The notes under the pieces: generated by a model
Told to the model about the DNA's origin: nothing
What the model saw: only the letters and a program-made list of their open reading frames with translations
Databases searched by the model: none
Shown here: positions 8,110 through 23,616 of the stretch, one piece after another
How the letters are laid out: every line of letters begins with the position of its first letter
Numbering within the stretch: the stretch's first letter is position 1
Position numbers and translations under genes: made by a program
Assembly: GCA_019056805.1 (NCBI GenBank)
Contig: DXJG01000012.1
Span: 15,118-47,117, forward strand
Reading direction: 5' to 3'
DNA: 32,000 bases
From: Candidatus Baldrarchaeota archaeon
GTDB taxonomy: Archaea; Asgardarchaeota; Baldrarchaeia; Baldrarchaeales; DXJG01

Positions 8110-11100
8110 TTGGAGGTTCGCAAGTTGCGTGTGGGCGCGAAACTATTAAGGTTTGTTTTTATCTTCTCGCTTATTGCTACATTATGTGTATGTGATGTTA
8201 TGCTCCCATTCAGTGCTCTTAGCAATTCTCATGAAACATTATCTCCATCAAGTGTTAGATATCCGTTTTCAGTAGATATAGGTCCAATCTATGAAGATAA
8301 CAGACTAGTTGCATATGTACTTTACCCCATTCGCCAAGTCTACGTCGTTGACGTTTATAAAGTAGAGCTTCCCGATGAATTGAATAAAACGAGTATCAGG
8401 GTTGGATATCTAAACAGTATGGGTATTGAACATTTAGATTATTGGAATGGTATAGATGGAATAGGATGGGAAGCAGAACTGACTAGGTTTGAAGAGTTCA
8501 TGAAATACTTTAACATAACTGCCGATAAAGATGGCAGAATAAATCTTGCTGGAGAACCCATATACCATGAGTTCTATGAAAGAAATCTTCTAGAAGTGCA
8601 TTTCGCTAGGAAACACTGGCAAAATGTGCTTATAGAAATCTTGAAGATGATGTTTGATTCTGGAATGGCTGGGGTAGAGTTTGATGGAGGTATCGGAGCG
8701 TATTCAGCGAGTGGGGGCTTCTTTACATTTGACAACGAAACCATGGAAGGTTTCAATGAATATTTAGCTTCTAAATATTCTGAAGAGGAATTAAGAACGC
8801 TTTTTGGCATAGAAAATATCGAGACATTCAACTTTAGGGAATATCTAAATAATCTTGGATATTATGATGATTCAACTATTAGTCCTGATGGGAGTGAAAT
8901 TACAGATCCCAAAGCTAGGGCTCTTTGGAGAGAACTGGCATTATACCATTTAACATGCTTGGTTGATTTCTACAAAAAAATCAGAGAAAACATAGATGCT
9001 TGGGAGAATAAAAGTGGAAGAGATTTTATAGTGTTGATTAATGCGCCTACACTTCACTATAAAACCTGCTGGGGTTTGCCAATAAATATCTTAGCTGTTC
9101 TTCAATACGTAGATGGGCTTAGCTACGAAGTGGATTGGAGAAGTGAGGGAAATGCTTATCCAAATATGACTTTGGCTCCTGATTTTAGGATAGTAACCAG
9201 CTTAAGCAAGATGATAAGAAGTTGGACTCTTCCAACTTCAGGATTATCACCTGAATGGGCATTAAAATGTATTCCATTAGATTTTATTGCAGCAGCTGAA
9301 CTCATAGCTGTCAGTGCTAAGGAAACAAACCCGCAACTTCCAGTATTGATTGATATAGATGACCTAAAACGTTTAGAAGATTTCAGCTTTCTAATTCAGA
9401 AGAACCCGCAACTTTACGATCAAGAAGATTATGGACAAATAGCTTTAATATATCCTATGGCCTCTGCCTGGTACTCGGAAGAACCTCCTACAGCCGTGAT
9501 ACCTGTTGATCGTTATATTAGTTATGAGGGAGCTTATTATCTCTTAGCTGATGCACATTATCCAATAGACGTCGTGGTTTTTGGCGATAACATATGGTTT
9601 AATAGGACCCCCTCCTTAGGTGAATTGTTAAAGTATAAGGCTATAGTGTTAGCTAATGCAACTCATTTAACAGATGATCAAGTTGAGCTTATAATAGACT
9701 ATGTAGAGAGCGGCGGAATTCTTATTGCTATAGGAGAACTGGGGGTTTATAATGAAACTGGAGCTAAGGTTAGTAGACCTGAGCTTTCATCTTTACTAGA
9801 AGGCACATATAGCACGATGCACGGTATAAATGTCTCCATACATAGTTATGGTAGTGGAACTGTTATTCACATCCCGGAAAACCTAGCTTGGGATTACTTC
9901 ATGTATAGACTTTACTATGATCCAGATTCGAAGAATATTTTAAATGGGTTCAAGTCTATTTTGACATCTGTATTGCCTAGTGAAATCGAGACCAACTTAA
10001 CAGATCGAACTCATATTATACGGTATAGGGGTAAAGAGGTTGAAAACCTCGTATTTTACATAGTCAATTATGAGTTTGATTTTGAGAAAAGGGAGTTAAT
10101 TAAGCAATATAATGTTAGTTTTTCCTTTAAGCTACCGAGCTTCTTAGCTGAAAGAGAAATTCAAGTGAAAGTATATTCAGAAGAGAACACGGATGGCGAA
10201 CTTGTTAATTTTGAAAAAGATGGCGATTGGATTCATATTTCATTGTCAGAAGTTCCTGTGTTGACAATTGTTGAAGTAAGACCCTATAAACCAAAAGATG
10301 AAACGACCGTGATATCTGAACCAACTACTCTTGAAAGTGAAACATTAATTTTGTCTGGAGATCTAGTAATCTCTTCAGATCTAGTTTTAAGGGATTCAAG
10401 GATCGTTGTGAATGCTTCAAGTTGGGAACCTATCTCTATTAGAGTTCTTCCGGGCGGTTCTCTTACGATGATTAATTCTGTCATAGACAAAGAAGCGGGA
10501 AACTATTTTGTAGTCGTAGAGAAAGGTGCTAAACTTTACATGAGAAACTCTGAGGTTAGTGGAGCTGGAGTATGGGGAACTCTAGATCGAAGTGGATTTG
10601 TAGTGTTTGCTGACGACGTCGTAGTAACGGGCTGCAGCTTTCACAATAGCTTCGACGCTGGTCTCCTACTTTATAACGTTACTTATGCGGTAGTCTCGAA
10701 TAATACATTCCGTGATAATAGGATAGGTCTTTCAATAGTAATTGCAGGAATGGTCAACGCTATGGGAAATAAGTATGTAAACAACAGTATAGGTCTATAT
10801 GCAACTGACATTATTAGACTTAAAATATCGGATAGCCTATTTTTGAATAATGGATTCCTAGGTATGGCTCTGAAGAGAGGCAATTTCGAGATATTTAACA
10901 CTACAGTTAAGGACTCGTTGCACCACGGCATTTATGTCAATTCGGGAACGATTAAAATATGTGAGTCAATAGTGGAGTCTAATGAGGTTGGTATATTTGT
11001 CGACGGCTCTCCTTTAGCTATACTGTTAGGAAATAAGGTGTATAATAATACTAACATTGGCATATGGTTTAATCAGATAGTTTCACTAGGAAATTACCCA

Positions 11101-12279
11101 TGGTTCTGGTATAACTTGAAACTTCCATCTCTACTATGTGAAGGATGTATTATCAACAATGAAATTACTGAAAATGGTATTGGGATTTTAGTTGAGAACA
11201 AAGAATACTACTTTAATGAATTTATACGTATAGCTAACAATACCATTAGCGGAAATCAGGTTGGAATATCGATTTCAAACTCTGTCGCAAAAATATATGC
11301 TAACAACTTTATAGGGAATGAAAAACATGTTGGTCAAGTAAGTGGACCTGTGGAGTTCTACTATGATTGGATTTTAGCGGGAGAAAGAATAGCCTTAAAG
11401 ACTATTGGGAACTATTGGGATGACTATAGTGGGTCGGGTAATTATACGGTGACTTCAGAGTACGAAGATATTTATCCCCTCAGAGAACCTGCGGCAACTT
11501 CCTTTACCGGGGATGTAAATGAACCTATAGTTAAAATTTTAAATGTAAGTATTGTTTCTTCTTCTAATGGAATGGTTAAGGTAAAACTATATTTTGAGAC
11601 TTGGGATGATACTCTTCTCAGCGGTGCACCGACACCTGATCTTTACTGCTACTTCGCTTTTGGCTCGTTTTGGAGTCCAAATATAGAAATGGAGCATAAC
11701 TGGATTGGAGTAAGCGGGGAGATATTGGCTCCAGAACTTAGTGGAAGGTCTCCTGAAGATGTTTTAAGCTATGTAATTGGGTCTTGGGTGGCAGAAGTAA
11801 ATGAGTCCTGGCTGGAAAATATGAGCATAGCGATATATGTAAGTGATATGTATTGTAACTGGGCTCGAAACGACAGTATTAAGCCTCATGTAACGGTTGT
11901 TAGAAGGGATCCCGACGTTGTCTACGAGGCCGATGAAGTCACAATAGAGGCCGCAGTTTTCGATTGGAGCAGAATTGCAAACGTCACCTTAAGGTATTAT
12001 GATGGAAGCTCTTTCAAAGAGGTGGTCATGAATTATGATCACCGAAGCGGACTATATGTTGCTAAAATACCTGCTTTGCAAGCAGGAAAACGCGTAGAAT
12101 ATCAGGTCATTGCTGAGGATATCTATGGAAATCTAGCTGAAAGCAATGTTTATTCGTACGAGGTTAAAGCTGTGGTTCCGCCAAGTGTAGAAATTCCCGT
12201 AGAGTACATAATTGGAGGAGTGGTAAGTGTGGTTGTGGTGGGGACAATAATAGTAATTATAATTCGACGTAGAAGATAG
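8110..12279 (+). CDS. Large secreted, C-terminally anchored protein: GH-like TIM barrel, GATase1/GH42-trimerisation-like domain, right-handed beta-helix, Ig-like domains, TM
   Basis: Signal peptide (likely start TTG 8125 after GGAGG 8112-8116). GVEFDG and FREYL segments, KYKAIVLANATHLTDDQVELIIDYVESGGILIA, repeated NNxIGI beta-helix coils, GNYWDDYSG, TM followed by RRRR. Confidence 0.85.
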   Translation: MEVRKLRVGAKLLRFVFIFSLIATLCVCDVMLPFSALSNSHETLSPSSVRYPFSVDIGPIYEDNRLVAYVLYPIRQVYVVDVYKVELPDELNKTSIRVGYLNSMGIEHLDYWNGIDGIGWEAELTRFEEFMKYFNITADKDGRINLAGEPIYHEFYERNLLEVHFARKHWQNVLIEILKMMFDSGMAGVEFDGGIGAYSASGGFFTFDNETMEGFNEYLASKYSEEELRTLFGIENIETFNFREYLNNLGYYDDSTISPDGSEITDPKARALWRELALYHLTCLVDFYKKIRENIDAWENKSGRDFIVLINAPTLHYKTCWGLPINILAVLQYVDGLSYEVDWRSEGNAYPNMTLAPDFRIVTSLSKMIRSWTLPTSGLSPEWALKCIPLDFIAAAELIAVSAKETNPQLPVLIDIDDLKRLEDFSFLIQKNPQLYDQEDYGQIALIYPMASAWYSEEPPTAVIPVDRYISYEGAYYLLADAHYPIDVVVFGDNIWFNRTPSLGELLKYKAIVLANATHLTDDQVELIIDYVESGGILIAIGELGVYNETGAKVSRPELSSLLEGTYSTMHGINVSIHSYGSGTVIHIPENLAWDYFMYRLYYDPDSKNILNGFKSILTSVLPSEIETNLTDRTHIIRYRGKEVENLVFYIVNYEFDFEKRELIKQYNVSFSFKLPSFLAEREIQVKVYSEENTDGELVNFEKDGDWIHISLSEVPVLTIVEVRPYKPKDETTVISEPTTLESETLILSGDLVISSDLVLRDSRIVVNASSWEPISIRVLPGGSLTMINSVIDKEAGNYFVVVEKGAKLYMRNSEVSGAGVWGTLDRSGFVVFADDVVVTGCSFHNSFDAGLLLYNVTYAVVSNNTFRDNRIGLSIVIAGMVNAMGNKYVNNSIGLYATDIIRLKISDSLFLNNGFLGMALKRGNFEIFNTTVKDSLHHGIYVNSGTIKICESIVESNEVGIFVDGSPLAILLGNKVYNNTNIGIWFNQIVSLGNYPWFWYNLKLPSLLCEGCIINNEITENGIGILVENKEYYFNEFIRIANNTISGNQVGISISNSVAKIYANNFIGNEKHVGQVSGPVEFYYDWILAGERIALKTIGNYWDDYSGSGNYTVTSEYEDIYPLREPAATSFTGDVNEPIVKILNVSIVSSSNGMVKVKLYFETWDDTLLSGAPTPDLYCYFAFGSFWSPNIEMEHNWIGVSGEILAPELSGRSPEDVLSYVIGSWVAEVNESWLENMSIAIYVSDMYCNWARNDSIKPHVTVVRRDPDVVYEADEVTIEAAVFDWSRIANVTLRYYDGSSFKEVVMNYDHRSGLYVAKIPALQAGKRVEYQVIAEDIYGNLAESNVYSYEVKAVVPPSVEIPVEYIIGGVVSVVVVGTIIVIIIRRRR

Positions 12280-12599: not shown

Positions 12600-12998
12600 T
12601 TATAGTGGTATGAACATTGTTTTTATTTGTTGTACTCCTCTCATTCCTCTAATTCTGCTTACGAGGTCAAGTATTCTTTTGTGTTCTCCCTCAGCGATGA
12701 AAATATCAAGGCAATATTGTTTACCTATGTGTCTATGTATGTTTTCTACAACTACGTCGTCAAACTCGTGTCTTACCTCGCTTAATCTTAACTCTATGTC
12801 CCTTCTTGCATATTCACGTGTAACCATAATTACTGTGACCACATTTTCGTTTTCGATCTTAGCAATTTCTGCTTCTGCCATTAAACTTCTTAGAGCGTCT
12901 CGAAAAGCTTCAGATCTACTATAATATCCTCTTGATTTTATAAATTCATCAAATTTCTTTAGAAGTTCACTTGGTAAAGTAATACTTACAACTGGCAT
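12600..12998 (-). CDS. nikR: Nickel-responsive regulator NikR (RHH plus ACT-like metal-binding domain)
   Basis: N-terminal RHH VSITLPSELLKKFDEFIKSRGYYSRSEAFRDALR; Ni-ligand pattern H...HxH.....C retained (EVRH...IHRHIGKQYC); GGTGAG upstream. Confidence 0.9.
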   Translation of the reverse strand: MPVVSITLPSELLKKFDEFIKSRGYYSRSEAFRDALRSLMAEAEIAKIENENVVTVIMVTREYARRDIELRLSEVRHEFDDVVVENIHRHIGKQYCLDIFIAEGEHKRILDLVSRIRGMRGVQQIKTMFIPL

Positions 12999-13009
12999 AT
13001 TCTCACCAC

Positions 13010-13081
13010 ATATTAACTTAGTACCTATATACTAATACTACACTAATATTTTTTCCTCCTTTTTCAGCACTAAGTTAATAT
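13010..13081. promoter_or_regulatory. 13-bp perfect inverted repeat flanking the nikR/ATPase divergent promoter region
   Basis: ATATTAACTTAGT (13010-13022) and ACTAAGTTAATAT (13069-13081), 46-nt spacer. Confidence 0.55.
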
Positions 13082-15101: not shown

Positions 15102-15830
15102 CTATTTGAATAATAGTTTTTTCAGATTTTCACCAAGCACTTTTCTCTTAGTTTTTTCATTTTCACATGCTTCTTCAATTTTTGTTAATTCAACACGTAT
15201 ATTCAAGTATGGAAAATCTGAACCAAAAAGTACACGATCCTCATCGACTTCTATCGCCTTAGCTATTGTGCTTGGGAGGACAACTGCACTAGTTTCAACA
15301 TATATGTTTTCATATTTTTCCATCACGCTGATACAAGCTTCTGAAAGATGACCTAAAATTATTGTCAAATCAGGATGTCTTTCCGCGACCAAAGCTATAT
15401 ATGACGGTGAAGCAAATCCCATGCCACTGTGAAATAGTATGGGAATTCCTAAGTTTTCTGCTTCTTTAAAAAGAGGATCGAAAGCAGGGTGATCTGGTCT
15501 AAAACACTCAACTATGGGATGAAGTTTTAACCCCTTTAACTCTAAATCTTCTATTGCAGTTTTTAATTGTTTAATGGCCTCGTCTTCGATTCGTGGATCT
15601 ACACGAGCAAAACCTATCAATCTATCATTATATTTTTTTACTTCATTTGCTATTTCCCTATTTCTTTCGTCGTATTGTTGCCCAACAGATGGGTTTGCAA
15701 AAATCACAGCTTTTCTTATTCCATATTTATCCATTGCTTTAACAATTTCCTCACCGCTGACTGAAGGGTCAAATTTTGGAGTCCAAGGAGCTGATTTACC
15801 ACAATGAACATGTGCATCCCATATCTCCAT
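15102..15830 (-). CDS. Amidohydrolase family protein (Amidohydro_2-like TIM barrel)
   Basis: DAHVH, GLKLHP, ILFHSG, ILGHL, NIYVETS, LFGSDFP; GGGAGG upstream. Confidence 0.9.
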   Translation of the reverse strand: MEIWDAHVHCGKSAPWTPKFDPSVSGEEIVKAMDKYGIRKAVIFANPSVGQQYDERNREIANEVKKYNDRLIGFARVDPRIEDEAIKQLKTAIEDLELKGLKLHPIVECFRPDHPAFDPLFKEAENLGIPILFHSGMGFASPSYIALVAERHPDLTIILGHLSEACISVMEKYENIYVETSAVVLPSTIAKAIEVDEDRVLFGSDFPYLNIRVELTKIEEACENEKTKRKVLGENLKKLLFK

Positions 15831-15897: not shown

Positions 15898-17436
15898 TTA
15901 GTAGCCATATGGTAGACCGTCGCCTCGGACATCAGAAATGCCTATTAAAGTTCCATCCTTATATTTATATACTCCTTGAGCTACACCAGTCCTTCCAGGA
16001 TACTTTAACTTTATGTACATTTTATCGTTTGAAGTTTTGTAGCCTTCTTCGACAAGTATTTTTTCTCCGTTCCATAGGAATCTAGGTGCTTCTAAGGCTT
16101 CCCAAACGGGCATTTCATAATCAACTATATTGCTTACGAATAAGGCGTGTTGTTGTGGCCTGAAGTCGCCGCCACTTGCGCCTAGAGCTGCAAAAACACC
16201 TTCATCATCCTCTAAAAGTAAGGCTGAAAGAGTATGAAGTGAGCGTTTTCTTGGTTCTAATTTGTTAGGGCCCTCAAATTTAAAGTATGATCCACGATTG
16301 TTCAATGGAATTCCCAGGTTTTTTACAACTATACGGGATCCAAATGGATGAAATAAGCTTTGAATGGCTGAAACAATATTTCCCTCTTTATCAGCAATCG
16401 CAAAATACGTTGTATCTCCACTACTCAAGTTTAAGTTTTTAGTAGATTGAGGTATTTCTTTTAAAAGTTCTCGGGCAAAGCTCTTTGAAATGAATTTAGC
16501 TAAATCGATGTTAATATATCTTGGATCGCTTAGCTGGTTATCTCGTTCTCTGTAGGCAAGTTTCGCTACTTCTGTCACTAATCTTATTCTTTTTTCAGAA
16601 AAGGGATCGATATTTTTGAGGTTTAACTCTTCTAACATGTTTAACATGAGTAGAGTTGTTGCACCCATACTATTAGGTGGTATTTCATAGACACGAATAC
16701 CGTGGTAGGTTATGGATATTGGTTTACACCATTCAGGTTTGAAGTCGCTAAAATCTGAAACTGAAAAAACTTCTTCTCCCCTATTTAGGTAGTTTACTAT
16801 CTCCTCAGCTATCCAACCCTTATAGAAGACATCTGCCCCCTCATAAGCAATAGATTTTAAAACTTCAGCTAAATTTTTCTGTTTTAATATTTGCCCAACC
16901 TTTGGAGGCCTACCATTAATAAGATAGTTTTCTCGAAACCCCTCATCAGTGAAATTCTCTGCGCCGTACTCTATTGCACGTGAGAGACTCCAATAAACTG
17001 GGAAACCATTCTCAGCAAACTGTATTGGACCCTTAAGTAGTTTATCAAACTCAAGAGAACCAAATTTACTGTGTAATTCTTTTAATCCGGCAACCAGACC
17101 TGGAACAGTTACGGAGAAAGGAGAAAAGGCTGGCATTTCCCCATAACCTAAATTCTTCAGAAATTCAATTGACAACTTTTTTGGAGCCCAACCACTTGAA
17201 TTAAGACAATAAATTTTATTTTGCTCGGCAGAATAAAATAGTGTGAAAAAGTCTCCTCCAAGCCCGCCTAAATGCGGCTGAGTTACAGCTAATGTGAAAC
17301 TAGTGGCAATGGTGGCATCAAACGCATTTCCACCATTCATTAAAACTTTAACTCCTGCCATAGAGGCAAGAGGGTGCTCAGAAGCAATAACACCGTTACA
17401 AGCTATAAAGGGAGTTTTAAAAACCATAGATATCAT
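15898..17436 (-). CDS. Gamma-glutamyltransferase-family Ntn hydrolase, no signal peptide
   Basis: GGNAFDA, VTQPHLGGLGGD, VTVPG, autoprocessing GDTTYF (Thr nucleophile), LNNRG, PRKRSLHTL, GASGG, DVRGDG. Confidence 0.92.
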   Translation of the reverse strand: MISMVFKTPFIACNGVIASEHPLASMAGVKVLMNGGNAFDATIATSFTLAVTQPHLGGLGGDFFTLFYSAEQNKIYCLNSSGWAPKKLSIEFLKNLGYGEMPAFSPFSVTVPGLVAGLKELHSKFGSLEFDKLLKGPIQFAENGFPVYWSLSRAIEYGAENFTDEGFRENYLINGRPPKVGQILKQKNLAEVLKSIAYEGADVFYKGWIAEEIVNYLNRGEEVFSVSDFSDFKPEWCKPISITYHGIRVYEIPPNSMGATTLLMLNMLEELNLKNIDPFSEKRIRLVTEVAKLAYRERDNQLSDPRYINIDLAKFISKSFARELLKEIPQSTKNLNLSSGDTTYFAIADKEGNIVSAIQSLFHPFGSRIVVKNLGIPLNNRGSYFKFEGPNKLEPRKRSLHTLSALLLEDDEGVFAALGASGGDFRPQQHALFVSNIVDYEMPVWEALEAPRFLWNGEKILVEEGYKTSNDKMYIKLKYPGRTGVAQGVYKYKDGTLIGISDVRGDGLPYGY

Positions 17437-17513: not shown

Positions 17514-18251
17514 TTAGAGAATTCTTTTGCTGGGATATAAGATTTCTTCGATTGATGGACGTGACCAGGTAACATTTTTTAAGTGTTTTTTAGCTATGGT
17601 GGCAGCTTTTTTCAACTCGTCGATTGTTGGGCGTCTCCACGGGAAATTAGGAACTGGCATATATCCTATTATGTGGAAAGGTATGTTATCATCTATACTT
17701 GCTACAAACTCCGCTATTTTTTCGACTTCACCAACATCTACAAATTTGGGAACTAAAACGGTATTTGTTTTTAGTGTAATTCCCTTTTGATAACATTTCT
17801 CAAAGTTTTCGAGTACCTCTTTATTAGAGAAATTTCCTGTATATCTTCTGTGAGTATCTTCACTAATGGCTTTTATACTCACTACGGCGCTCTCTACTCC
17901 ATCGGGAGGCATTATTGATAAGTTGGTGTGACCAATGCCTACTCTTGCTCCGAGGTTCATTGCAAACTTAGCTATTGCTGGTAAATGAGGGTTGATAAGA
18001 GGTTCTCCGCCTAGAAACTTTACCTTTTCAGCTTTTTCATTCCGGTAATATTCTTCTATTAATTCTATTATCTTGTTTTCTGGTATTCTTTTGCATTCTT
18101 CTCCATTGCATGGATCTTTGATTCTATATGTGCATACAGAGCATGCCCAGTTGCAGCCGAAGTTGTAAATGAACAGGGTTTTTGTATGTTCCATGTATGT
18201 GACTTTTCTAAAGAAGGGGGTTTCGCAACGCCACCATTTCATTTTTATCAT
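17514..18251 (-). CDS. Radical SAM protein (short, PFL-activase-like fold)
   Basis: NFGCNWACSVCTY (CxxxCxxC), FLGGEP, TVLVP, IPFHIIGY; start (18251 or 18242) overlaps the ATPase 3' end. Confidence 0.92.
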   Translation of the reverse strand: MIKMKWWRCETPFFRKVTYMEHTKTLFIYNFGCNWACSVCTYRIKDPCNGEECKRIPENKIIELIEEYYRNEKAEKVKFLGGEPLINPHLPAIAKFAMNLGARVGIGHTNLSIMPPDGVESAVVSIKAISEDTHRRYTGNFSNKEVLENFEKCYQKGITLKTNTVLVPKFVDVGEVEKIAEFVASIDDNIPFHIIGYMPVPNFPWRRPTIDELKKAATIAKKHLKNVTWSRPSIEEILYPSKRIL

Positions 18252-19029
18252 CTCGTATTGTTTTTAAAGGTAAAATTCCCAGTATTTCACCATTTTCTCC
18301 CTCAACGATTCTAACATCTATCTTATAGACTTCTCCTATATTTTTGGGTGTGAGGACTTCACTGGGTGTACCAGCTGCAAAAATCCTTCCTTCTTTTAAC
18401 AAGATAATTTTGTCACAGAACCGTGCAGCTAGAGATAAATCGTGTAATGTCATAATAGTAACAAGACTATTTTCAATGGTGAATTCTTTTATTACGTCCA
18501 TTATTTGAAGCTTGTAATTTGGATCGAGATGCGAAGTTGGTTCGTCGAGCAAAAGAACTTTAGGTTGCTGAATAAGTGCTCTTGCTATATGTATTCTTCT
18601 TCTTTCTCCACCACTAACCTCATTTAATCCTCTTTCTAAAAATTCTCGGAGATCTAACTTCTCAATTACATTTTCGACAAGATTCGTTGCATTATAATCA
18701 AAAAGTTTGAACGTAGTTGTATGAGGGAAACGACCCATAAGTATAGTTTCTAAAACCGTGAATGGTGCAATTACATTTTCTTGAGTGACTACAGAAATCT
18801 TCTTTGCTAATTCTATTCTTGATACTGCTTTAATGTCTCTTCCATCGAGAAGAATCACACCTTGTTTTGGAATAAGTGCTCGGAAAATACATCTAAGTAA
18901 TGTTGTTTTTCCAGCACCATTAGGACCAAGAATTCCAAGAATTTCACCCTCTCCTGCCTCAAATGTAATATCTTCTAATACATTAACGCTATTGTAGGAG
19001 AAAGTAATGTTATGCACCTTCAATATCAT
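18208..19029 (-). CDS. ABC transporter ATP-binding subunit (FecE/BtuD-like)
   Basis: GPNGAGKTT Walker A, VSGGE signature, LLLDEPTSHLD, TLHDL. Confidence 0.95.
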   Translation of the reverse strand: MILKVHNITFSYNSVNVLEDITFEAGEGEILGILGPNGAGKTTLLRCIFRALIPKQGVILLDGRDIKAVSRIELAKKISVVTQENVIAPFTVLETILMGRFPHTTTFKLFDYNATNLVENVIEKLDLREFLERGLNEVSGGERRRIHIARALIQQPKVLLLDEPTSHLDPNYKLQIMDVIKEFTIENSLVTIMTLHDLSLAARFCDKIILLKEGRIFAAGTPSEVLTPKNIGEVYKIDVRIVEGENGEILGILPLKTIRDDKNEMVALRNPLL

Positions 19030-20053
19030 AGGTTATCACCTTTTTTCTTCTTTTTAGTAAATAAATGAAGAAGGGAACGCCAAAGAGCGATGTTATGATT
19101 CCTATTGGAATTTCAGCAGGTTGTATTACAACTCTAGAGATAAGATCGGCAAAGACAAGAAATGCTCCACCAAAGAATGCAGATGCTGGAATAAGAAATC
19201 TGTTGTCAGGTCCTATTACAAGTCTCACCATATGCGGTATAACTAGTCCAACAAAACCTATGGGACCAACATATGATACACAAACAGATACAAGTAGCGC
19301 AACTAAAATCACAATAACTTTTCTAGATTTATCAACTTCAACTCCCAAACTTTTCGCCGTATCTTCACCTAGCATCATGATATTAAGTTCTCGTCCAAAA
19401 AACAACGATATAACAATTAAGGGAACAGATCCCACAGCAACTACTTGAACTTCCTTCCATCTAATTCCTGTAAGATTTCCCATCAGCCAGAAAACTATAA
19501 CCTCGAGTTTTTCCCCTGCTACATACATCATAAACGAGGTTAACGCAGAAAATAGGGACGCTACTGCTATACCGGCAAGAAGAAGACCTGTCACTGGAAG
19601 TCGTCCATCCTCAGCTGCAACCACATAAGTTATCATAAGGGAAAACATTGCAAATATAAAAGCAAAAATAGGGATGGGGATTACGAACCATAGCTCCAAT
19701 ATAACTGCAAAAGCTGCGCCAAATGCAGCTCCCGATGAAATTCCTAAAACATAAGGGCTTGCAAGAGGGTTTCTGAAGACTCCTTGCACTAAGCAACCGG
19801 CTATTGCAAGTGAGGCCCCCACTAAACTTGCCATGAGTACACGAGGTAGTCTAACCTTCCAGATGATGATAGCATACAAATAATTTGACTCAGAAGATGA
19901 TCCTCTTAGTAAAATTTTTAATACAAGACTTGGGGGAATTTGAACTACTCCAATACTTACCCCTATAACCACGGATAGAATAAGTAATATTGCTGAGAAT
20001 ATTGTGAAAAGGATTTTCCTAGCAATCATTTGTTTGTAGATTTCAAGGACCAT
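19010..20053 (-). CDS. FecCD/BtuC-family ABC permease
   Basis: VRLPRVL, QGVFRNPLASPYVLGISSGA, LGEDTAKSLGV, GPIGFVGLVIPH, EIPIGIITS. Confidence 0.95.
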   Translation of the reverse strand: MVLEIYKQMIARKILFTIFSAILLILSVVIGVSIGVVQIPPSLVLKILLRGSSSESNYLYAIIIWKVRLPRVLMASLVGASLAIAGCLVQGVFRNPLASPYVLGISSGAAFGAAFAVILELWFVIPIPIFAFIFAMFSLMITYVVAAEDGRLPVTGLLLAGIAVASLFSALTSFMMYVAGEKLEVIVFWLMGNLTGIRWKEVQVVAVGSVPLIVISLFFGRELNIMMLGEDTAKSLGVEVDKSRKVIVILVALLVSVCVSYVGPIGFVGLVIPHMVRLVIGPDNRFLIPASAFFGGAFLVFADLISRVVIQPAEIPIGIITSLFGVPFFIYLLKRRKKVITYDIEGA

Positions 20054-20104
20054 CTACAGCACCTATATGTTGACTCTTGGAAGTATACTACTATGAGTAA
20101 AAAA

Positions 20105-20132
20105 GTGTTACTAAAAAATAAAAAAGTATTAC
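20105..20132. promoter_or_regulatory. Putative NikR-type operator upstream of the permease
   Basis: GTGTTAC-N14-GTATTAC on plus (GTAATAC-N14-GTAACAC on minus); shares the 14-mer AGTAATACTTTTTT with the upstream site. Confidence 0.6.
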
Positions 20133-20209
20133 TATATGTTTTTGATGGAAATGTGTAATGCTGTTTGTTTAGAACATAAAATGTTAGCTGCACAATTGTA
20201 TGAATTGTG

Positions 20210-21256
20210 TTAAAGTATTTCTGTGATCACCTTTTCTAACATGTCTTGCAACATGAATAGCTCGTGTAAGCATGTCATTTCTGTACTGGTCTGTACAGCA
20301 GATTTACTTGTAGCTGCTATTGTTATGTATCCTGAGGTTTCTGATACATTGACTTCAAAGAATGCCCATATCATGAACTCTAGGCCTTCAATAAATCTTG
20401 GAGATGCTGTTGCAATATGTCTATCGAGATGGTATATTTTTTCGTTCTTTACGGCGTTTATTTGATCCCAGCCAGCTCTGTTTGTGAAGTTTTCAAGGGG
20501 CAAATCGCTTTCATATAATATTACGTCTGGATTTGCTTCTATGATGTATTCATCGCTAAGTTTGGGGTAACCTGTAAGGTTTCCGGCAATGTTAATGCCG
20601 CCAGCAAGTTCTATCATTTGGTGTGTAAATGTGTTTCTTCCAACGGTCTTGTATGGTGAGTAAAGTTCTAGATACACTTTGGGTCTCGATGTAGTTTTTG
20701 TTAAGTTTTTAACAAGTGCTTCTATATATGCGACTCTAGTTTTCAAGTTGCTTACGAGGTCTTCTGCCTTTTCTTCAGCGCCCACTGCTTTTCCTAGCAG
20801 TAGAATATCGAAGTATATTCCCTCAATGGTTGTTGGATGTATATAGATCACTGGAATGCCTAATTCTTCAAGTTGTTGTAGTTTTTGTTCATAATACCAC
20901 CAAGCAATAACGAGATCTGGTTCCAGTGCTACAATACTCTCTATATCTGTGCTTCCTACAACGGTTTTGTTTTGTGCTTCTGGCGGGTCATCACTGTACT
21001 TATCAACTCCTACTACCTTATCGAAGGCTCCGAGATCGTATAGTGTTCGTGTTGCAGCTGCTGCGAGAGATACTACTCTCTCTGCTGGTTTATCTAAAGT
21101 TACTTCTCTTCCAAGGTCGTCAATCAACACTATTTCTTTTGGTACTTCCTCTACTTGTTGTCCTCTAAACATGTAGTAGCCGCCAACAAATCCGACGGCT
21201 AGCATAATTATTGCCACTATTATCACGGTGGCTATTTTTCCTGTATTTGTCGCCAT
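20210..21256 (-). CDS. ABC transporter substrate-binding protein (BtuF/FecB class III), N-terminal TM anchor
   Basis: DDLGREVTLDKPAERVVSL, IESIVALEPDLVI, IELAGGINIA, IIEANPDVI, WDQINAVKNEKIY, SPRFIEGLE; GGTGG upstream. Confidence 0.92.
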   Translation of the reverse strand: MATNTGKIATVIIVAIIMLAVGFVGGYYMFRGQQVEEVPKEIVLIDDLGREVTLDKPAERVVSLAAAATRTLYDLGAFDKVVGVDKYSDDPPEAQNKTVVGSTDIESIVALEPDLVIAWWYYEQKLQQLEELGIPVIYIHPTTIEGIYFDILLLGKAVGAEEKAEDLVSNLKTRVAYIEALVKNLTKTTSRPKVYLELYSPYKTVGRNTFTHQMIELAGGINIAGNLTGYPKLSDEYIIEANPDVILYESDLPLENFTNRAGWDQINAVKNEKIYHLDRHIATASPRFIEGLEFMIWAFFEVNVSETSGYITIAATSKSAVQTSTEMTCLHELFMLQDMLEKVITEIL

Positions 21257-21274
21257 ATACCTCGCCCACCTGAA

Positions 21275-21302
21275 GTAATACTTTTTTGTAGAGAAGTATT
21301 AC
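21275..21302. promoter_or_regulatory. Putative NikR-type operator GTAATA-N16-TATTAC
   Basis: Perfect 10-bp inverted repeat AGTAATACTT (21274-21283) / AAGTATTACT (21294-21303), between the TATA box and the RBS of the binding-protein gene. Confidence 0.75.
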
Positions 21303-21309
21303 TAAACGG

Positions 21310-21320
21310 TTTATAACTTT
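21310..21320 (-). promoter_or_regulatory. BRE plus TATA box of the ABC operon
   Basis: Minus strand AAAG-TTATAAA, about 55 nt upstream of the start codon. Confidence 0.6.
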
Positions 21321-21372
21321 ATCTAAAAATCCGGTAAAAATGGATAACTCACCTACATCTATGAATTAACTA

Positions 21373-21573
21373 TCAAATAACATTTGAAAAGAGTACAAGA
21401 AAAAATACAATCCGTTTAAAACCTTTATAGGTAAATGTAAGCTTTGATTCATCAATAATCCTCTCAGTGTTCATTAAAACTTTAACTCCTGTCATTGAAG
21501 CCAAAGGATACTTTGACCTAACAAAAATATTACTAACTGTAATTAGGCTTTTAACAGTATAGTGCCCCAACAA
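21373..21573 (-). pseudogene. Truncated remnant of a GGT-family N-terminus
   Basis: PLASMTGVKVLMN matches PLASMAGVKVLMN of the GGT gene; 22 identical nt (21470-21491 vs 17336-17357), then homology stops abruptly. Confidence 0.7.
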
Positions 21574-21741: not shown

Positions 21742-23616
21742 TTGAGGGACGCATATAAACTTATATATGCGATCCTAATTTTATCGTTGCTCATAATGCC
21801 GCAGATACACTTTCACTACGTGTTTTCCTTGCAGAATAGAGCAGATGAAAAGTACGCACCTGAGCCGAGTGAAAACTTGGTTTTTAACATTGTAGGTAAA
21901 CGTAGTGTTGCGGCTAAGTTTTCTGGGAATATTATTTATGTTAATGGTTCGGGTTGGTGGTTTGAGGGAGGACAATTCAACCCAAGTTCTACGCCAATAC
22001 AGTCCGCGATAAACAATGCAAGCATTGGAGATACAATAATCGTTAAAGATGGTGTATACGTGGAGAATATTGTTGTTAATAAAGCTTTGACGTTAATCTC
22101 TGAGAACGGTCCCGAAAAAACAACCATTACACCTTCCCAAACAGGATATAATGTGCCTGTGGTTAATATATCGGCTAGCAACGTAAAAATAAGTGGATTC
22201 ACAATAACGGGCGGATACCATGGAATTTATCTGAATTATTCAAACAACAACACGATAGCAAACAATATTATAACAAACAACACGTATGGAGTTAGGCTCT
22301 GGCATTCTAACAACAATACGATAACCAATAACAATATAACAGATATTAAACAAGCAGGAATAGACCTTTACGCTTCATCTTACAATACGATAATAAACAA
22401 CGTCATAAAAAACTGTACTTACAATGGAATTTACCTAGATCAATCAAGTAAAAATGCAATAAAAAATAACGGTATAGAGAACAACAAATGGGGAATTTAC
22501 CTTTTTGATCATAGTATTAACAACACGTTAATGAGCAATAATATAACAAACAATGACGAATATGGAATTTGGCTACGTGGTTCAGATAACAATACGATAA
22601 TAAACAATATTATAGCAAACAACACAAAGTATGGCATCTACATTTACCGCTCAAGTAATTGCATTATTTACTTGAACAACTTTGATAATACAAACAACTC
22701 TTATGTGTATGATTCAACAAATGTTTGGAGTTCTACGGAACCGCTAAAATATGCTTATTACGGGTATCAGTACTCCGGTTACCTAGGCAATTACTGGAGT
22801 GATTACACCGGTCCAGATGAAGATTGGAATGGAGTCGGAGATGAACCATATATTTTGGATGAGAACAACACAGATAATTACCCGCTAGTACAGTCTAAGG
22901 AAAACTACCTTATGGTAACTGAAACAGTTCCTCCTACGATCGAGACTAACATCGTTGAAGGCTCTTTCCTCAGAGACACTGTAATAATTGTTGTAAATGC
23001 TAGCGACGCTTCTGGTATACATAGAGTTGAACTCGTTATTAATGGAACTCCAATATGTTCAGATTACGATGCTCCCTATGAATTTGAATGGTACACGCCG
23101 ATTTACGAAGACGGCCTATACTGTTTGGAACTGGTGGCTGTAGACATATTTGGAAACATGGCTAACAAAACCGTTATCGTTATGGTCGATAATACTGGCC
23201 CAACTATTGGAAACCCTGTTTTGAGCCCAGAGAAACCCGTAGAAGGCGAAGATGTCAATGTGAGTGTTGCTGTAAGCGACGAGTTGAGTGGCGTAAAAAA
23301 CGTAACACTATGGTATAGTGTTGCTGGGGGTAGTTGGATACAGCTACAAATGAGTTTTGAAGATGGGAAATGGGTGGCAACGATACCAGGACAGGAAGCA
23401 GATGTAGAAGTCACATACTACTTTAAGGCTTATGACAAAGCTGGAAACCTCGCCTATAGCATGTACTATTCTTACAGAGTTGAGGAGAAGCAAAAGGAAC
23501 CAACAATATCGTCCAAACTTATGGCAGGTGTATTCGTGCTTATAGTAGGGGTGGCAGCTGGATTATTAATTGCATTAAAAAAGATGAAAACTAAAAAAAC
23601 TTCAAAAGTTACTTAA
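21742..23616 (+). CDS. Secreted NosD/CASH right-handed beta-helix protein with Ig-like domains and C-terminal TM anchor
   Basis: Signal peptide, IQSAINNASIGDTIIVKDGVY, Asn-rich NNTIxNNxIxNNxxGI coils, GNYWSDYTG, two DxxPP/GP-delimited Ig-like domains, TM then Lys-rich tail. Confidence 0.9.
   Translation: MRDAYKLIYAILILSLLIMPQIHFHYVFSLQNRADEKYAPEPSENLVFNIVGKRSVAAKFSGNIIYVNGSGWWFEGGQFNPSSTPIQSAINNASIGDTIIVKDGVYVENIVVNKALTLISENGPEKTTITPSQTGYNVPVVNISASNVKISGFTITGGYHGIYLNYSNNNTIANNIITNNTYGVRLWHSNNNTITNNNITDIKQAGIDLYASSYNTIINNVIKNCTYNGIYLDQSSKNAIKNNGIENNKWGIYLFDHSINNTLMSNNITNNDEYGIWLRGSDNNTIINNIIANNTKYGIYIYRSSNCIIYLNNFDNTNNSYVYDSTNVWSSTEPLKYAYYGYQYSGYLGNYWSDYTGPDEDWNGVGDEPYILDENNTDNYPLVQSKENYLMVTETVPPTIETNIVEGSFLRDTVIIVVNASDASGIHRVELVINGTPICSDYDAPYEFEWYTPIYEDGLYCLELVAVDIFGNMANKTVIVMVDNTGPTIGNPVLSPEKPVEGEDVNVSVAVSDELSGVKNVTLWYSVAGGSWIQLQMSFEDGKWVATIPGQEADVEVTYYFKAYDKAGNLAYSMYYSYRVEEKQKEPTISSKLMAGVFVLIVGVAAGLLIALKKMKTKKTSKVT

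Follow-up and report, generated by a model that had tools for sequence, protein, structure and literature searches.

Two 28-bp inverted repeats in the window (the whole 32,000-nucleotide stretch of Baldrarchaeota DNA analysed here) are quite probably operators of a nickel regulon, belonging to the NikR-box class and predicted to be bound by a repressor that controls an importer module linked to nickel. Judged by sequence comparison, the conserved unit of this module is a binding protein, a FecCD permease, an ATPase and a small radical SAM enzyme (Table 1). Nickel is needed by hydrogenases, CO dehydrogenase and nickel-pincer enzymes, yet it is scarce, and for the most part bound, in the sulfidic sediments that these archaea inhabit. 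The dedicated nickel importers known are NikABCDE, NikMNQO, the NiCoT-type permeases and, in Helicobacter, NiuBDE. No description of a NikR regulon in Asgard archaea was found in the literature searched.

Table 1. Features of the window on which the argument is built.
Feature	Coordinates	Strand	Basis and remarks
NikR paralogue of clade B, N-terminus MPVVSITLP	12600..12998	-	Ni ligands intact; divergent from a P1B ATPase gene; only NikR in the assembly
Amidohydrolase_2 gene	15102..15830	-	Pfam; downstream of the module
Gamma-glutamyltranspeptidase-family (GGT) gene	15898..17436	-	Pfam; downstream of the module
Small radical SAM enzyme, 245 aa, uncharacterised family	17514..18251	-	Pfam; CNWACSVC cluster motif; fourth conserved gene of the module
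ABC ATPase, short form (273 aa)	18208..19029	-	Without the MJ0874 C-terminal domain, which is present in the B12-context relatives L162, L164 and L165
FecCD/BtuC-type permease	19010..20053	-	Pfam FecCD, E 9e-102; all NCBIfam equivalog matches under cut-off
Operator 2 (predicted)	20105..20132	.	Plus strand GTGTTAC-N14-GTATTAC, equal to minus strand GTAATAC-TTTTTTATTTTTTA-GTAACAC
Class III substrate-binding protein (Peripla_BP_2), membrane-anchored	20210..21256	-	Pfam, E 7e-36; BtuF/haem-binding subgroup
Operator 1 (predicted)	21275..21302	.	GTAATAC-N14-GTATTAC; over the start site expected for transcription of the binding-protein operon
Putative TATA box TTATAAA	21310..21322 (TATA 21316-21310)	-	Upstream AAAG/BRE-like stretch

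Operator 1 is a 28-bp dyad of two 7-bp half-sites, perfect under the strict palindrome test. Its arms extend to 10 bp, AGTAATACTT at 21274-21283 and AAGTATTACT at 21294-21303, and an inverted-repeat check found them 100% complementary. Read along the minus strand, the operator begins 8 nt downstream of the TTATAAA box, and its last base is separated from the ATG of the binding-protein gene by 18 nt, among them the Shine-Dalgarno stretch GGTGGGCGAGGT. From the usual archaeal distance between TATA box and start, transcription would be expected to begin near 21287, within the spacer of the operator itself. A look-up of RNA runs for 19000-21400 returned none that contains this DNA. The site is kept in orthologous contigs whose binding proteins are 90, 83 and 66% identical to the one in the window, though the sequences around it have diverged, and at two of these relatives' loci (L132 and L133) aaagTTATAAA is kept as well, 6-8 nt upstream of the box.

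Operator 2 lies between the binding-protein gene and the permease gene, which are 156 nt apart, and has the 14-mer AGTAATACTTTTTT in common with operator 1. It shows two mismatches to the strict palindrome and none to GTRWYAC-N14-GTRWYAC, and its T/A-rich spacer may double as TATA box for an internal promoter. The half-site GTAWTAC is nearly self-palindromic, and this second site may also be taken for a direct repeat that has one mismatch. In the 83% relative it is present, shifted by one half-site; in the 66% relative it is absent, the gap there being only 31 nt; and in the 90% relative it has been lost by deletion. Its function is uncertain because of this deletion in the closest relative. 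The earlier note had placed both 28-bp sites, the perfect 10-bp arms and the common 14-mer correctly, while its expectation of conservation in orthologous operons holds for the first site, down to 66% identity, but not for the second, which by comparison of these loci is lineage-specific, with none beyond the nearest relatives.

How rare are such sites? The window contains two matches to the box against 0.16 expected, a number reached in 2 of 100 shuffles. Perfect GTRWYAC-N13/14-GTRWYAC boxes occur only four times in the 1.92-Mb genome, always placed at promoters, and two of the four are operators 1 and 2. A matrix made from five sites recovers, in a genome scan, those five and one more above 14 bits. 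Elsewhere in this genome a box stands upstream of a nikMNQO-type operon (cbiM-PDGLE(NikN)-cbiQ-cbiO), of a second binding protein/FecCD operon, and of an FmdE gene with an ABC-2 transporter. The layout TATA, 7-10 nt, box is common to all of them, and the geometry of operator 1 relative to its TATA box and ATG is that found at nikM and at three other boxes.

The same association is seen well outside this genome. At related Asgard cbiM/nikM loci, a box with at most one mismatch lies within 200 nt upstream in 18 of 29 cases (control 0.0033 per 200 nt), and at the cbiM loci a box with up to two mismatches is found in 24 of 29 (control 0.043 per 200 nt), these counts being comparative ones across related genomes that are not independent samples. 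Scanning this genome and its relatives for the motif, as the earlier note had proposed, gives matches upstream of nikMNQO in this genome and most of the others, and in relatives also upstream of cdhA and cobN. A box lies between divergent nikR and nikM in at least nine genomes, and 6 of the 21 Peripla_BP_2 genes (61 genomes) have one in their promoter. No convincing box was seen at the binding-protein operons of relatives G002 and G003, the latter having no more than a degenerate palindrome. One Methanobacteriota MAG has the four-gene module transcribed away from a canonical nikR, and GTAGCAC-N13-GTAACAC lies in the space between the two; boxes accompany the module loci of Thermoplasmatota and Methanomethyliaceae too.

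The NikR geometry claimed by the earlier note, dyad half-sites over 27-28 bp, is that of the NikR box predicted and published by Rodionov et al. (2004, PMC545781), GTGTTAC-N13/14-GTAACAC, which a later study (Rodionov et al., 2006, cited in PMC10617489) extended to methanogens. The inverted repeat has the same length, the same 7-bp half-sites and the same spacing, the half-site is nearly the same (GTRWYAC), and in both cases it precedes nikMNQO-type transporters and nickel enzymes. The half-sites of this genome, however, are most often GTAWTAC, flanked on the inner side by T/A-rich sequence; the box belongs to an Asgard archaeon and to an archaeal TATA promoter, and among its targets are Btu-like ABC importers with radical SAM genes. 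The operator bound by NikR at E. coli nikABCDE, GTATGA-N16-TCATAC, likewise spans 28 bp and is a dyad whose half-sites are two helical turns apart, and the logic proposed here would be the same, a nickel-corepressed repressor acting on an uptake operon. It differs in half-site sequence, in its bacterial promoter, and in its target, which is of the Opp/NikA family and not a class III binding-protein system.

As for the module, the binding protein has its best PDB profile matches in 4m7o, BtuF and ShuT (1e-40 to 1e-55), NiuB/CeuE following at 3e-22, and direct PDB comparison gives 2.6e-23 for 4m7o, about 1e-19 for BtuF and 1.2e-6 for NiuB (4ls3). Its structure model has a pLDDT of 88 and a transmembrane helix at residues 5-31. 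The fold was also tried as a guide to the cargo and set aside as not discriminating, with BtuF, haem binders, MolA, siderophore binders and NiuB all at E values of 1e-16 to 1e-21. Orthologues of the radical SAM enzyme, 40-86% identical, adjoin the binding protein in Asgard archaea, Thermoplasmatota, Methanobacteriota, Chloroflexota and other contigs; the family is small, with 118 representatives at E <= 1e-10. Against the PDB the enzyme has no informative relative (the best is NifB, E 0.008), and in the protein atlas it meets generic radical SAM clusters only. Its weaker matches (L186-L206) were discarded, since these are longer radical SAM proteins, unrelated to it and outside any nickel context. 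Two bacterial-type contigs have cooT beside the module, which in one of them directly follows nikMNQO. The GGT and Amidohydrolase_2 genes, considered as core members and rejected, are absent from L132, L135 and L159, and in L133 an opposite-strand ferritin-like gene separates them from the module; by this comparison they are probably outside the conserved unit.

The closest known system is NiuBDE (CeuE/FecDE) of Helicobacter pylori and H. mustelae, which, like the module in the window, consists of a class III binding protein, a FecD-type permease and a FecE-type ATPase. It is annotated as an iron system, carries nickel and cobalt, and is controlled by NikR, and its binding protein NiuB binds Ni-(L-His)2 (PMC5140060). 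The binding protein described here is nevertheless not an orthologue of NiuB/CeuE, being nearer to BtuF and the haem binders, and NiuBDE is without the radical SAM partner that the window module has. BtuFCD resembles the module in fold, permease family and nearest named sequence relatives, but the window proteins fall under the equivalog cut-offs (310 against 461 bits for BtuC, 133 against 281 for BtuD), the ATPase is the short one, the module has a radical SAM partner, and the context is nickel and not B12. In haem uptake operons there is an anaerobic radical SAM enzyme that degrades haem, ChuW/HutW, ChuW being HemN-like and about 445 aa long. These operons resemble the window module in encoding, together with a class III binding-protein importer of a metal complex, a radical SAM enzyme by which the metal could be set free anaerobically; ChuW is unrelated in sequence to the 245-aa protein, and the analogy would be functional only. 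In Methanothermobacter, an ABC transporter, CobN1 and NikR1 are induced under nickel limitation.

Which protein, then, would occupy these sites? The earlier note had pointed to the NikR encoded about 7 kb away, and its ligands are indeed intact: the protein has a ribbon-helix-helix domain and NikR_C (Pfam), with the full ligand set H-x10-HxH-x5-C (H76/H87/H89/C95-type, aligned to the E. coli and P. horikoshii NikRs). Being the only NikR_C protein in the assembly, it is a possible repressor for both operators, and in close relatives the importer operon is kept beside the P1B ATPase gene with which this nikR is paired; moreover, six boxes remain intact in the genome, so some cognate factor must exist. 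This assignment is doubtful all the same, and the boxes are probably not the targets of this neighbour. The protein falls in clade B, which throughout has Val at the position of E. coli Arg3 in the DNA-reading beta-strand, where clade A and the NikRs of known structure have Arg (tree and beta-strand alignment). In five other genomes clade B nikR forms a divergon with the P1B ATPase gene, and the intergenic region there carries ATTAAyTTAGTGCT and no GTRWYAC box; in the window, likewise, the gene is adjacent to no box. Clade A NikR alone accompanies the box in at least seven genomes, this genome being the only one classified as having clade B alone. From these patterns there would be two classes of NikR paralogue, each predicted to have its own operators and targets: uptake genes for one, the P1B ATPase for the other. 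There is roughly an even chance that the cognate regulator is a canonical clade A NikR, with an Arg-x-Ser/Thr-x-Ser/Thr reading strand, missing from this 91%-complete assembly. Searching the assembly by tblastn did not find a clade A nikR, and the genes flanking it in relatives G001 and G002 have no homologues in this genome, so that either loss of the gene or a gap in the assembly may account for its absence. A regulator of another family (DtxR, ArsR-type or another ribbon-helix-helix protein), the NikR likeness being coincidental, would accommodate the absence of canonical NikR from the assembly, a DtxR-family gene some 1.4 kb away from C9:442368, the weakest of the boxes, and, upstream of the C3 box, an ArsR-like gene. 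It is nonetheless improbable, since neither gene adjoins a box, whereas across the phylum and in the Methanobacteriota MAG the box lies in nikR-nikM or nikR-importer intergenic regions, and since the 21-bp spacing of half-sites fits a NikR tetramer and the published predicted signal. DtxR-type boxes, by comparison, are single palindromes of about 19 bp. That the palindromes are mere A/T-rich repeats produced by chance might be suggested by a genome of 35% G+C and a short, self-palindromic half-site, but this reading is practically untenable, effectively refuted by the rarity of the box in the genome, the conservation of operator 1 and the box counts at the cbiM loci of relatives.

The cargo invites a further alternative, namely that the module is an ordinary corrinoid importer of the BtuFCD type, whose box regulator either ties the nickel regulon to the supply of cobalt or corrinoids or also responds to cobalt. 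BtuF and proteins named 'cobalamin-binding protein' by NCBI are the best named matches of the binding protein, the genome encodes four proteins with B12-binding domains, no CbiC or CobN match and only two Peripla_BP_2 systems, and NiuBDE, after all, carries cobalt as well (PMC5140060). Against this, the relatives found in a clear B12-salvage context (CobS, CobT, CbiZ, CbiB) have the long ATPase with the MJ0874 domain and no radical SAM gene, whereas the form bearing the radical SAM gene sits with cooT, nikMNQO, nikR or NikR boxes. The binding protein reaches only 90.5 bits with the BtuF model, whose cut-off is 234, and in profile-search alignments the DW(F/L)xR stretch of BtuF is not kept in its family. 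The window contains no cobalamin salvage or biosynthesis genes and no cobalamin riboswitch (Rfam, nothing at gathering score), although such riboswitches are generally not known from archaea. A corrinoid importer is accordingly the unlikely reading, if one to be kept in mind. The importer is linked to nickel independently, by its fusion with cooT-nikMNQO and by the divergent canonical nikR in other lineages; together with the boxes before nickel genes, this agrees with the earlier note's placing of the importer in a nickel regulon. Since the box and the importer/radical SAM set are widespread with nickel genes in many anaerobes, the importer is probably an undescribed nickel uptake route.

For the nickel operators favoured here, the following mechanism can be proposed. 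Two 7-bp half-sites with centres 21 bp apart would suit the pair of ribbon-helix-helix dimers in a NikR tetramer. The nickel-loaded repressor would settle on operator 1, just past the TATA box and across the expected start, where it would block the recruitment of RNA polymerase and switch off all four genes of the module; scarcity of nickel would allow their expression. Operator 2 would be a recent addition, lying over a probable internal promoter for the three genes after the binding-protein gene. As cargo the earlier note had suggested a Ni or Co chelate or a Ni-containing cofactor, any of which would be conjectural; most likely it is a complexed form of nickel, taken up as an organic complex that the radical SAM enzyme would then process.

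A more far-reaching possibility, speculative and with the balance against it, is that the module is a distinct and widespread anaerobe pathway for scavenging organically complexed nickel, whether bound to a nickelophore or as a nickel tetrapyrrole released by neighbours. Its radical SAM enzyme would release the nickel anaerobically by breaking or remodelling the ligand, much as ChuW does with haem iron. Such a pathway would be common to Asgard, Thermoplasmatota and methanogen-lineage archaea and to Chloroflexota, and would be switched on under scarcity by NikR or a Fur-family regulator. If the nickel reading is true, it would define a second class of regulated importers, with a radical SAM enzyme of its own, common to Asgard archaea and several anaerobic phyla, and would add a route for complexed nickel; it would give a small orphan radical SAM family its first function, and would sketch a NikR regulon for the Asgard archaea.

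The importer operon carries two boxes of the predicted NikR type, GTRWYAC-N13/14-GTRWYAC, and on re-reading the sequence everything the earlier note had described of them was borne out: two 28-bp sites, the arms of the first, and the common 14-mer, AGTAATACTTTTTT. Two matches in the window compare with 0.16 expected, and the whole 1.92-Mb genome contains only four perfect boxes, the window's sites being two of them. The closest known regulatory element is the signal GTGTTAC-N13/14-GTAACAC, predicted as a NikR box before nikMNQO-type operons, whose structure, at 27-28 bp, matches that of the E. coli operator (Rodionov et al., 2004, PMC545781). Eight methanogen genomes were analysed for NikR sites in a 2006 follow-up by Rodionov et al., as mentioned in PMC10617489, and no description of NikR regulons in Asgard archaea was found in the literature searched.

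Importer genes, nikR region and boxes (plain positions refer to the window; C3, C4 and C9 are contigs of the same assembly, L010 an extracted locus)
Feature	Position	Strand	Remarks
Peripla_BP_2 substrate-binding protein	21256-20210	minus	
FecCD permease	20053-19010	minus	
ABC ATPase	19029-18208	minus	
Radical SAM protein	18251-17514	minus	245 aa
GGT-family gene, then Amidohydro_2 gene	downstream of radical SAM gene	minus	
Site 1	21275-21302		GTAATAC-N14-GTATTAC; perfect 10-bp arms 21274-21283 and 21294-21303
Site 2	20105-20132		GTGTTAC-N14-GTATTAC; within 156-nt gap before permease gene
Hairpin-forming repeat	20191-20209		CACAATT-GTATG-AATTGTG; directly 3' of binding-protein stop codon
nikR	12600-12998		
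nikR/P1B-ATPase intergenic DNA	12999-13081		two inverted copies, ~13010-13024 and ~13066-13080
Box	C4:16200		14 nt upstream of cbiM-PDGLE-cbiQ-cbiO
Box	C9:430343		34-bp perfect palindrome, weaker box adjoining; further half-site pair upstream of TATA box
Box	C3:13813-13840 (L010:4813-4840)		upstream of 174-aa ORF and rubrerythrin-VIT1 gene
Box, weaker	C9:442368		TTAATAC-N14-GTATTAA; upstream of FmdE-domain gene and ABC-2 type transporter

The link to nickel was tested across 60 relatives of the same phylum, and the proposed scan found boxes before the nikMNQO-type operon here and, elsewhere, before cbiM, cdhA and cobN. Within 200 nt upstream of cbiM, a box with at most one mismatch stands at 18 of 29 loci, and with at most two at 24 of 29; within the genes of these loci and downstream of them, the rates are 0.0033 and 0.043 per 200 nt, respectively. 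Of 61 genomes searched, 53 encode NikR, and in at least nine nikR adjoins nikM, mostly divergently, with the box between them. The order-level relative G004 has one box upstream of cdhA, which encodes a nickel enzyme, and another upstream of a binding protein-FecCD-ATPase-CobN operon; the congener G001 has a box in front of cobN. These box-controlled importers and cobN genes parallel Methanothermobacter, which induces an ABC transporter, CobN1 and NikR1 when nickel is limiting. Taken as a whole, the box is a real and well-conserved regulatory feature. CobN-like genes behind NikR boxes are found in G004 too and, adjoining the binding protein, in G006 and G017.

In the window's own genome (G000), the cbiM-PDGLE-cbiQ-cbiO operon is read as NikMNQO type because its PDGLE corresponds to the NikN-like component. 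On the other side of its box from nikMNQO, a KaiC/GvpD-like ATPase gene runs divergently (C4:14399-16242; L012:2399-4242); in G001 both box and KaiC-like gene are retained, at a place where nikMNQO is absent, so this ATPase may itself be nickel-regulated. The operon behind the palindromic C9 box (C9:430309-433553; L011:5309-8553) encodes a BATS-domain radical SAM protein resembling HmdB/BioB, plus a second binding protein, FecCD and ATPase, and is divergent from lipS1 and lplA. The C3 box is orthologous to one in G001 (C149; L043:2397-2424) that directly precedes a 1254-aa CobN gene; at the C3 locus CobN is gone, the box being followed by 165 nt of non-coding DNA and then the 174-aa ORF. The neighbourhood of the weaker C9 box (C9:438644-442395; L166:2644-6395) includes, at a distance of 1.4 kb, a DtxR-family gene that also encodes a FeoA domain. 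In the window, no boxes precede the large NosD/beta-helix surface-protein genes flanking the nickel genes (8110-12279 and 21742-23616), and nothing links them to the regulon.

Every box in G000 has a TATA-like element 7-10 nt ahead of its first base, and those of the uptake operons leave 12-18 nt between their end and a start codon led by a Shine-Dalgarno sequence; a bound protein would therefore cover the start site, which for the binding-protein operon would lie near 21287. Archaeal repressors usually block polymerase recruitment by covering the start site.

Orthologous operons were compared in three metagenomic contigs, whose binding proteins are 90, 83 and 66% identical to the window's. 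Box 1 is kept in all three, and the aaagTTATAAA before it in the two nearer relatives, but box 2 is displaced by one half-site at 83% identity, lost by a ~37 bp deletion at 90%, and absent at 66%, where the gap is only 31 nt. Control is thus conserved at operator 1, whereas operator 2 is a labile addition. The T/A-rich spacer of the latter aligns with the TATA-like stretch preceding the box in the 83% relative, suggesting that operator 2 sits on an internal promoter. The hairpin between the binding-protein and permease genes could be a processing or attenuation signal. The conserved unit has four genes, the radical SAM gene last; the GGT and amidohydrolase genes were rejected as members, being absent or separated by an opposite-strand gene.

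Few members of the phylum have Peripla_BP_2 genes: 18 of 61 genomes contain them, 21 in all, and six of the 21, across five families, have a box at their promoter. With an alignment of the radical SAM protein as query, ~19 true orthologues were found in named genomes, from Njordarchaeota-type and Baldrarchaeum Asgard MAGs, Thermoplasmatota, Thermoproteota, Methanomethyliaceae and a Methanobacteriota MAG to Chloroflexota, Acetothermia and Armatimonadota, and nearly all adjoin a binding protein, FecCD and ATPase. The Methanobacteriota MAG has a canonical nikR (MEKIVRFGVSL...) transcribed divergently from this module, with GTAGCAC-N13-GTAACAC between them, 10 nt upstream of the binding-protein gene; boxes also occur at Thermoplasmatota, Methanomethyliaceae and Methanofastidiosia loci. 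On a Guaymas contig the module comes straight after fur-cooT-cbiM-PDGLE-cbiQ-cbiO, and on a Chloroflexota contig it is 5 kb away from cooT. On four contigs (L170, L172, L185 and L160; Acetothermia, Chloroflexota and Dehalococcoidaceae-type) a Fur-family gene, not nikR, adjoins the radical SAM gene, which on all but L185 belongs to a binding protein-radical SAM-FecCD-ATPase module; the Fur-family gene may encode a Nur-like nickel regulator.

Which NikR binds the boxes? The earlier note had pointed to the one encoded ~7 kb from the importer. Its domains and ligands indeed mark this protein as a true NikR, and the assembly encodes no other. However, when 51 NikR proteins from the phylum are placed in a tree they form two groups, and the window's protein falls in clade B, which starts MP(V/I)(V/I)S, with Val at the Arg3 position; clade A, the clade adjoining nikM and the box, has the reading strand R-x-S/T/G-x-S/T, like the E. 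coli and P. horikoshii proteins. Clade B nikR is divergent from a P1B ATPase gene in five other genomes, where the intergenic DNA carries ATTAAyTTAGTGCT, probably the operator of this paralogue, and no GTRWYAC box; the window's counterpart has this motif twice, in inverted orientation, as ATTAACTTAGT(G/A)C. Boxes occur with clade A alone in at least seven genomes, and no genome but G000 was classified with clade B alone. Given this co-occurrence, the clade A proteins of both congeners (G001 and G002), and an assembly that is 91% complete, the regulator is more likely a clade A NikR missing from the assembly than the clade B protein.

What, then, is carried? Among known transporters NiuBDE of Helicobacter comes closest, a nickel importer of FecDE/CeuE type under NikR control (PMC5140060), but the window's binding protein is not an orthologue, and no radical SAM enzyme accompanies NiuBDE. 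In sequence comparisons the window's protein falls with BtuF and haem binders, not with NiuB or siderophore binders, and a fold search with its confident model (pLDDT 88) does not discriminate among candidates. In the model residues 5-31 form an N-terminal membrane helix, 310-330 are disordered and 326-347 make up a long helix at the C-terminus; the top match in NCBIfam, below cut-off, is a PGF-CTERM-anchored binding-protein model. Less probably, the system could be a standard corrinoid importer, as the genome encodes B12-binding proteins, lacks CbiC and CobN, and has the two box-controlled operons as its only Btu-like systems. Yet similarly distant relatives lying among cobS, cobT, cbiZ and cbiB lack the radical SAM gene, and their ATPase is long, with an MJ0874 domain; this split between B12 and nickel contexts argues against such a role. 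No characterised relative of the radical SAM partner, whose family is small, was found. [NiFe]-hydrogenase large subunits are encoded in the genome, so the organism needs nickel. Our best guess from context is that the cargo is nickel in complexed form, the radical SAM enzyme acting on the ligand.
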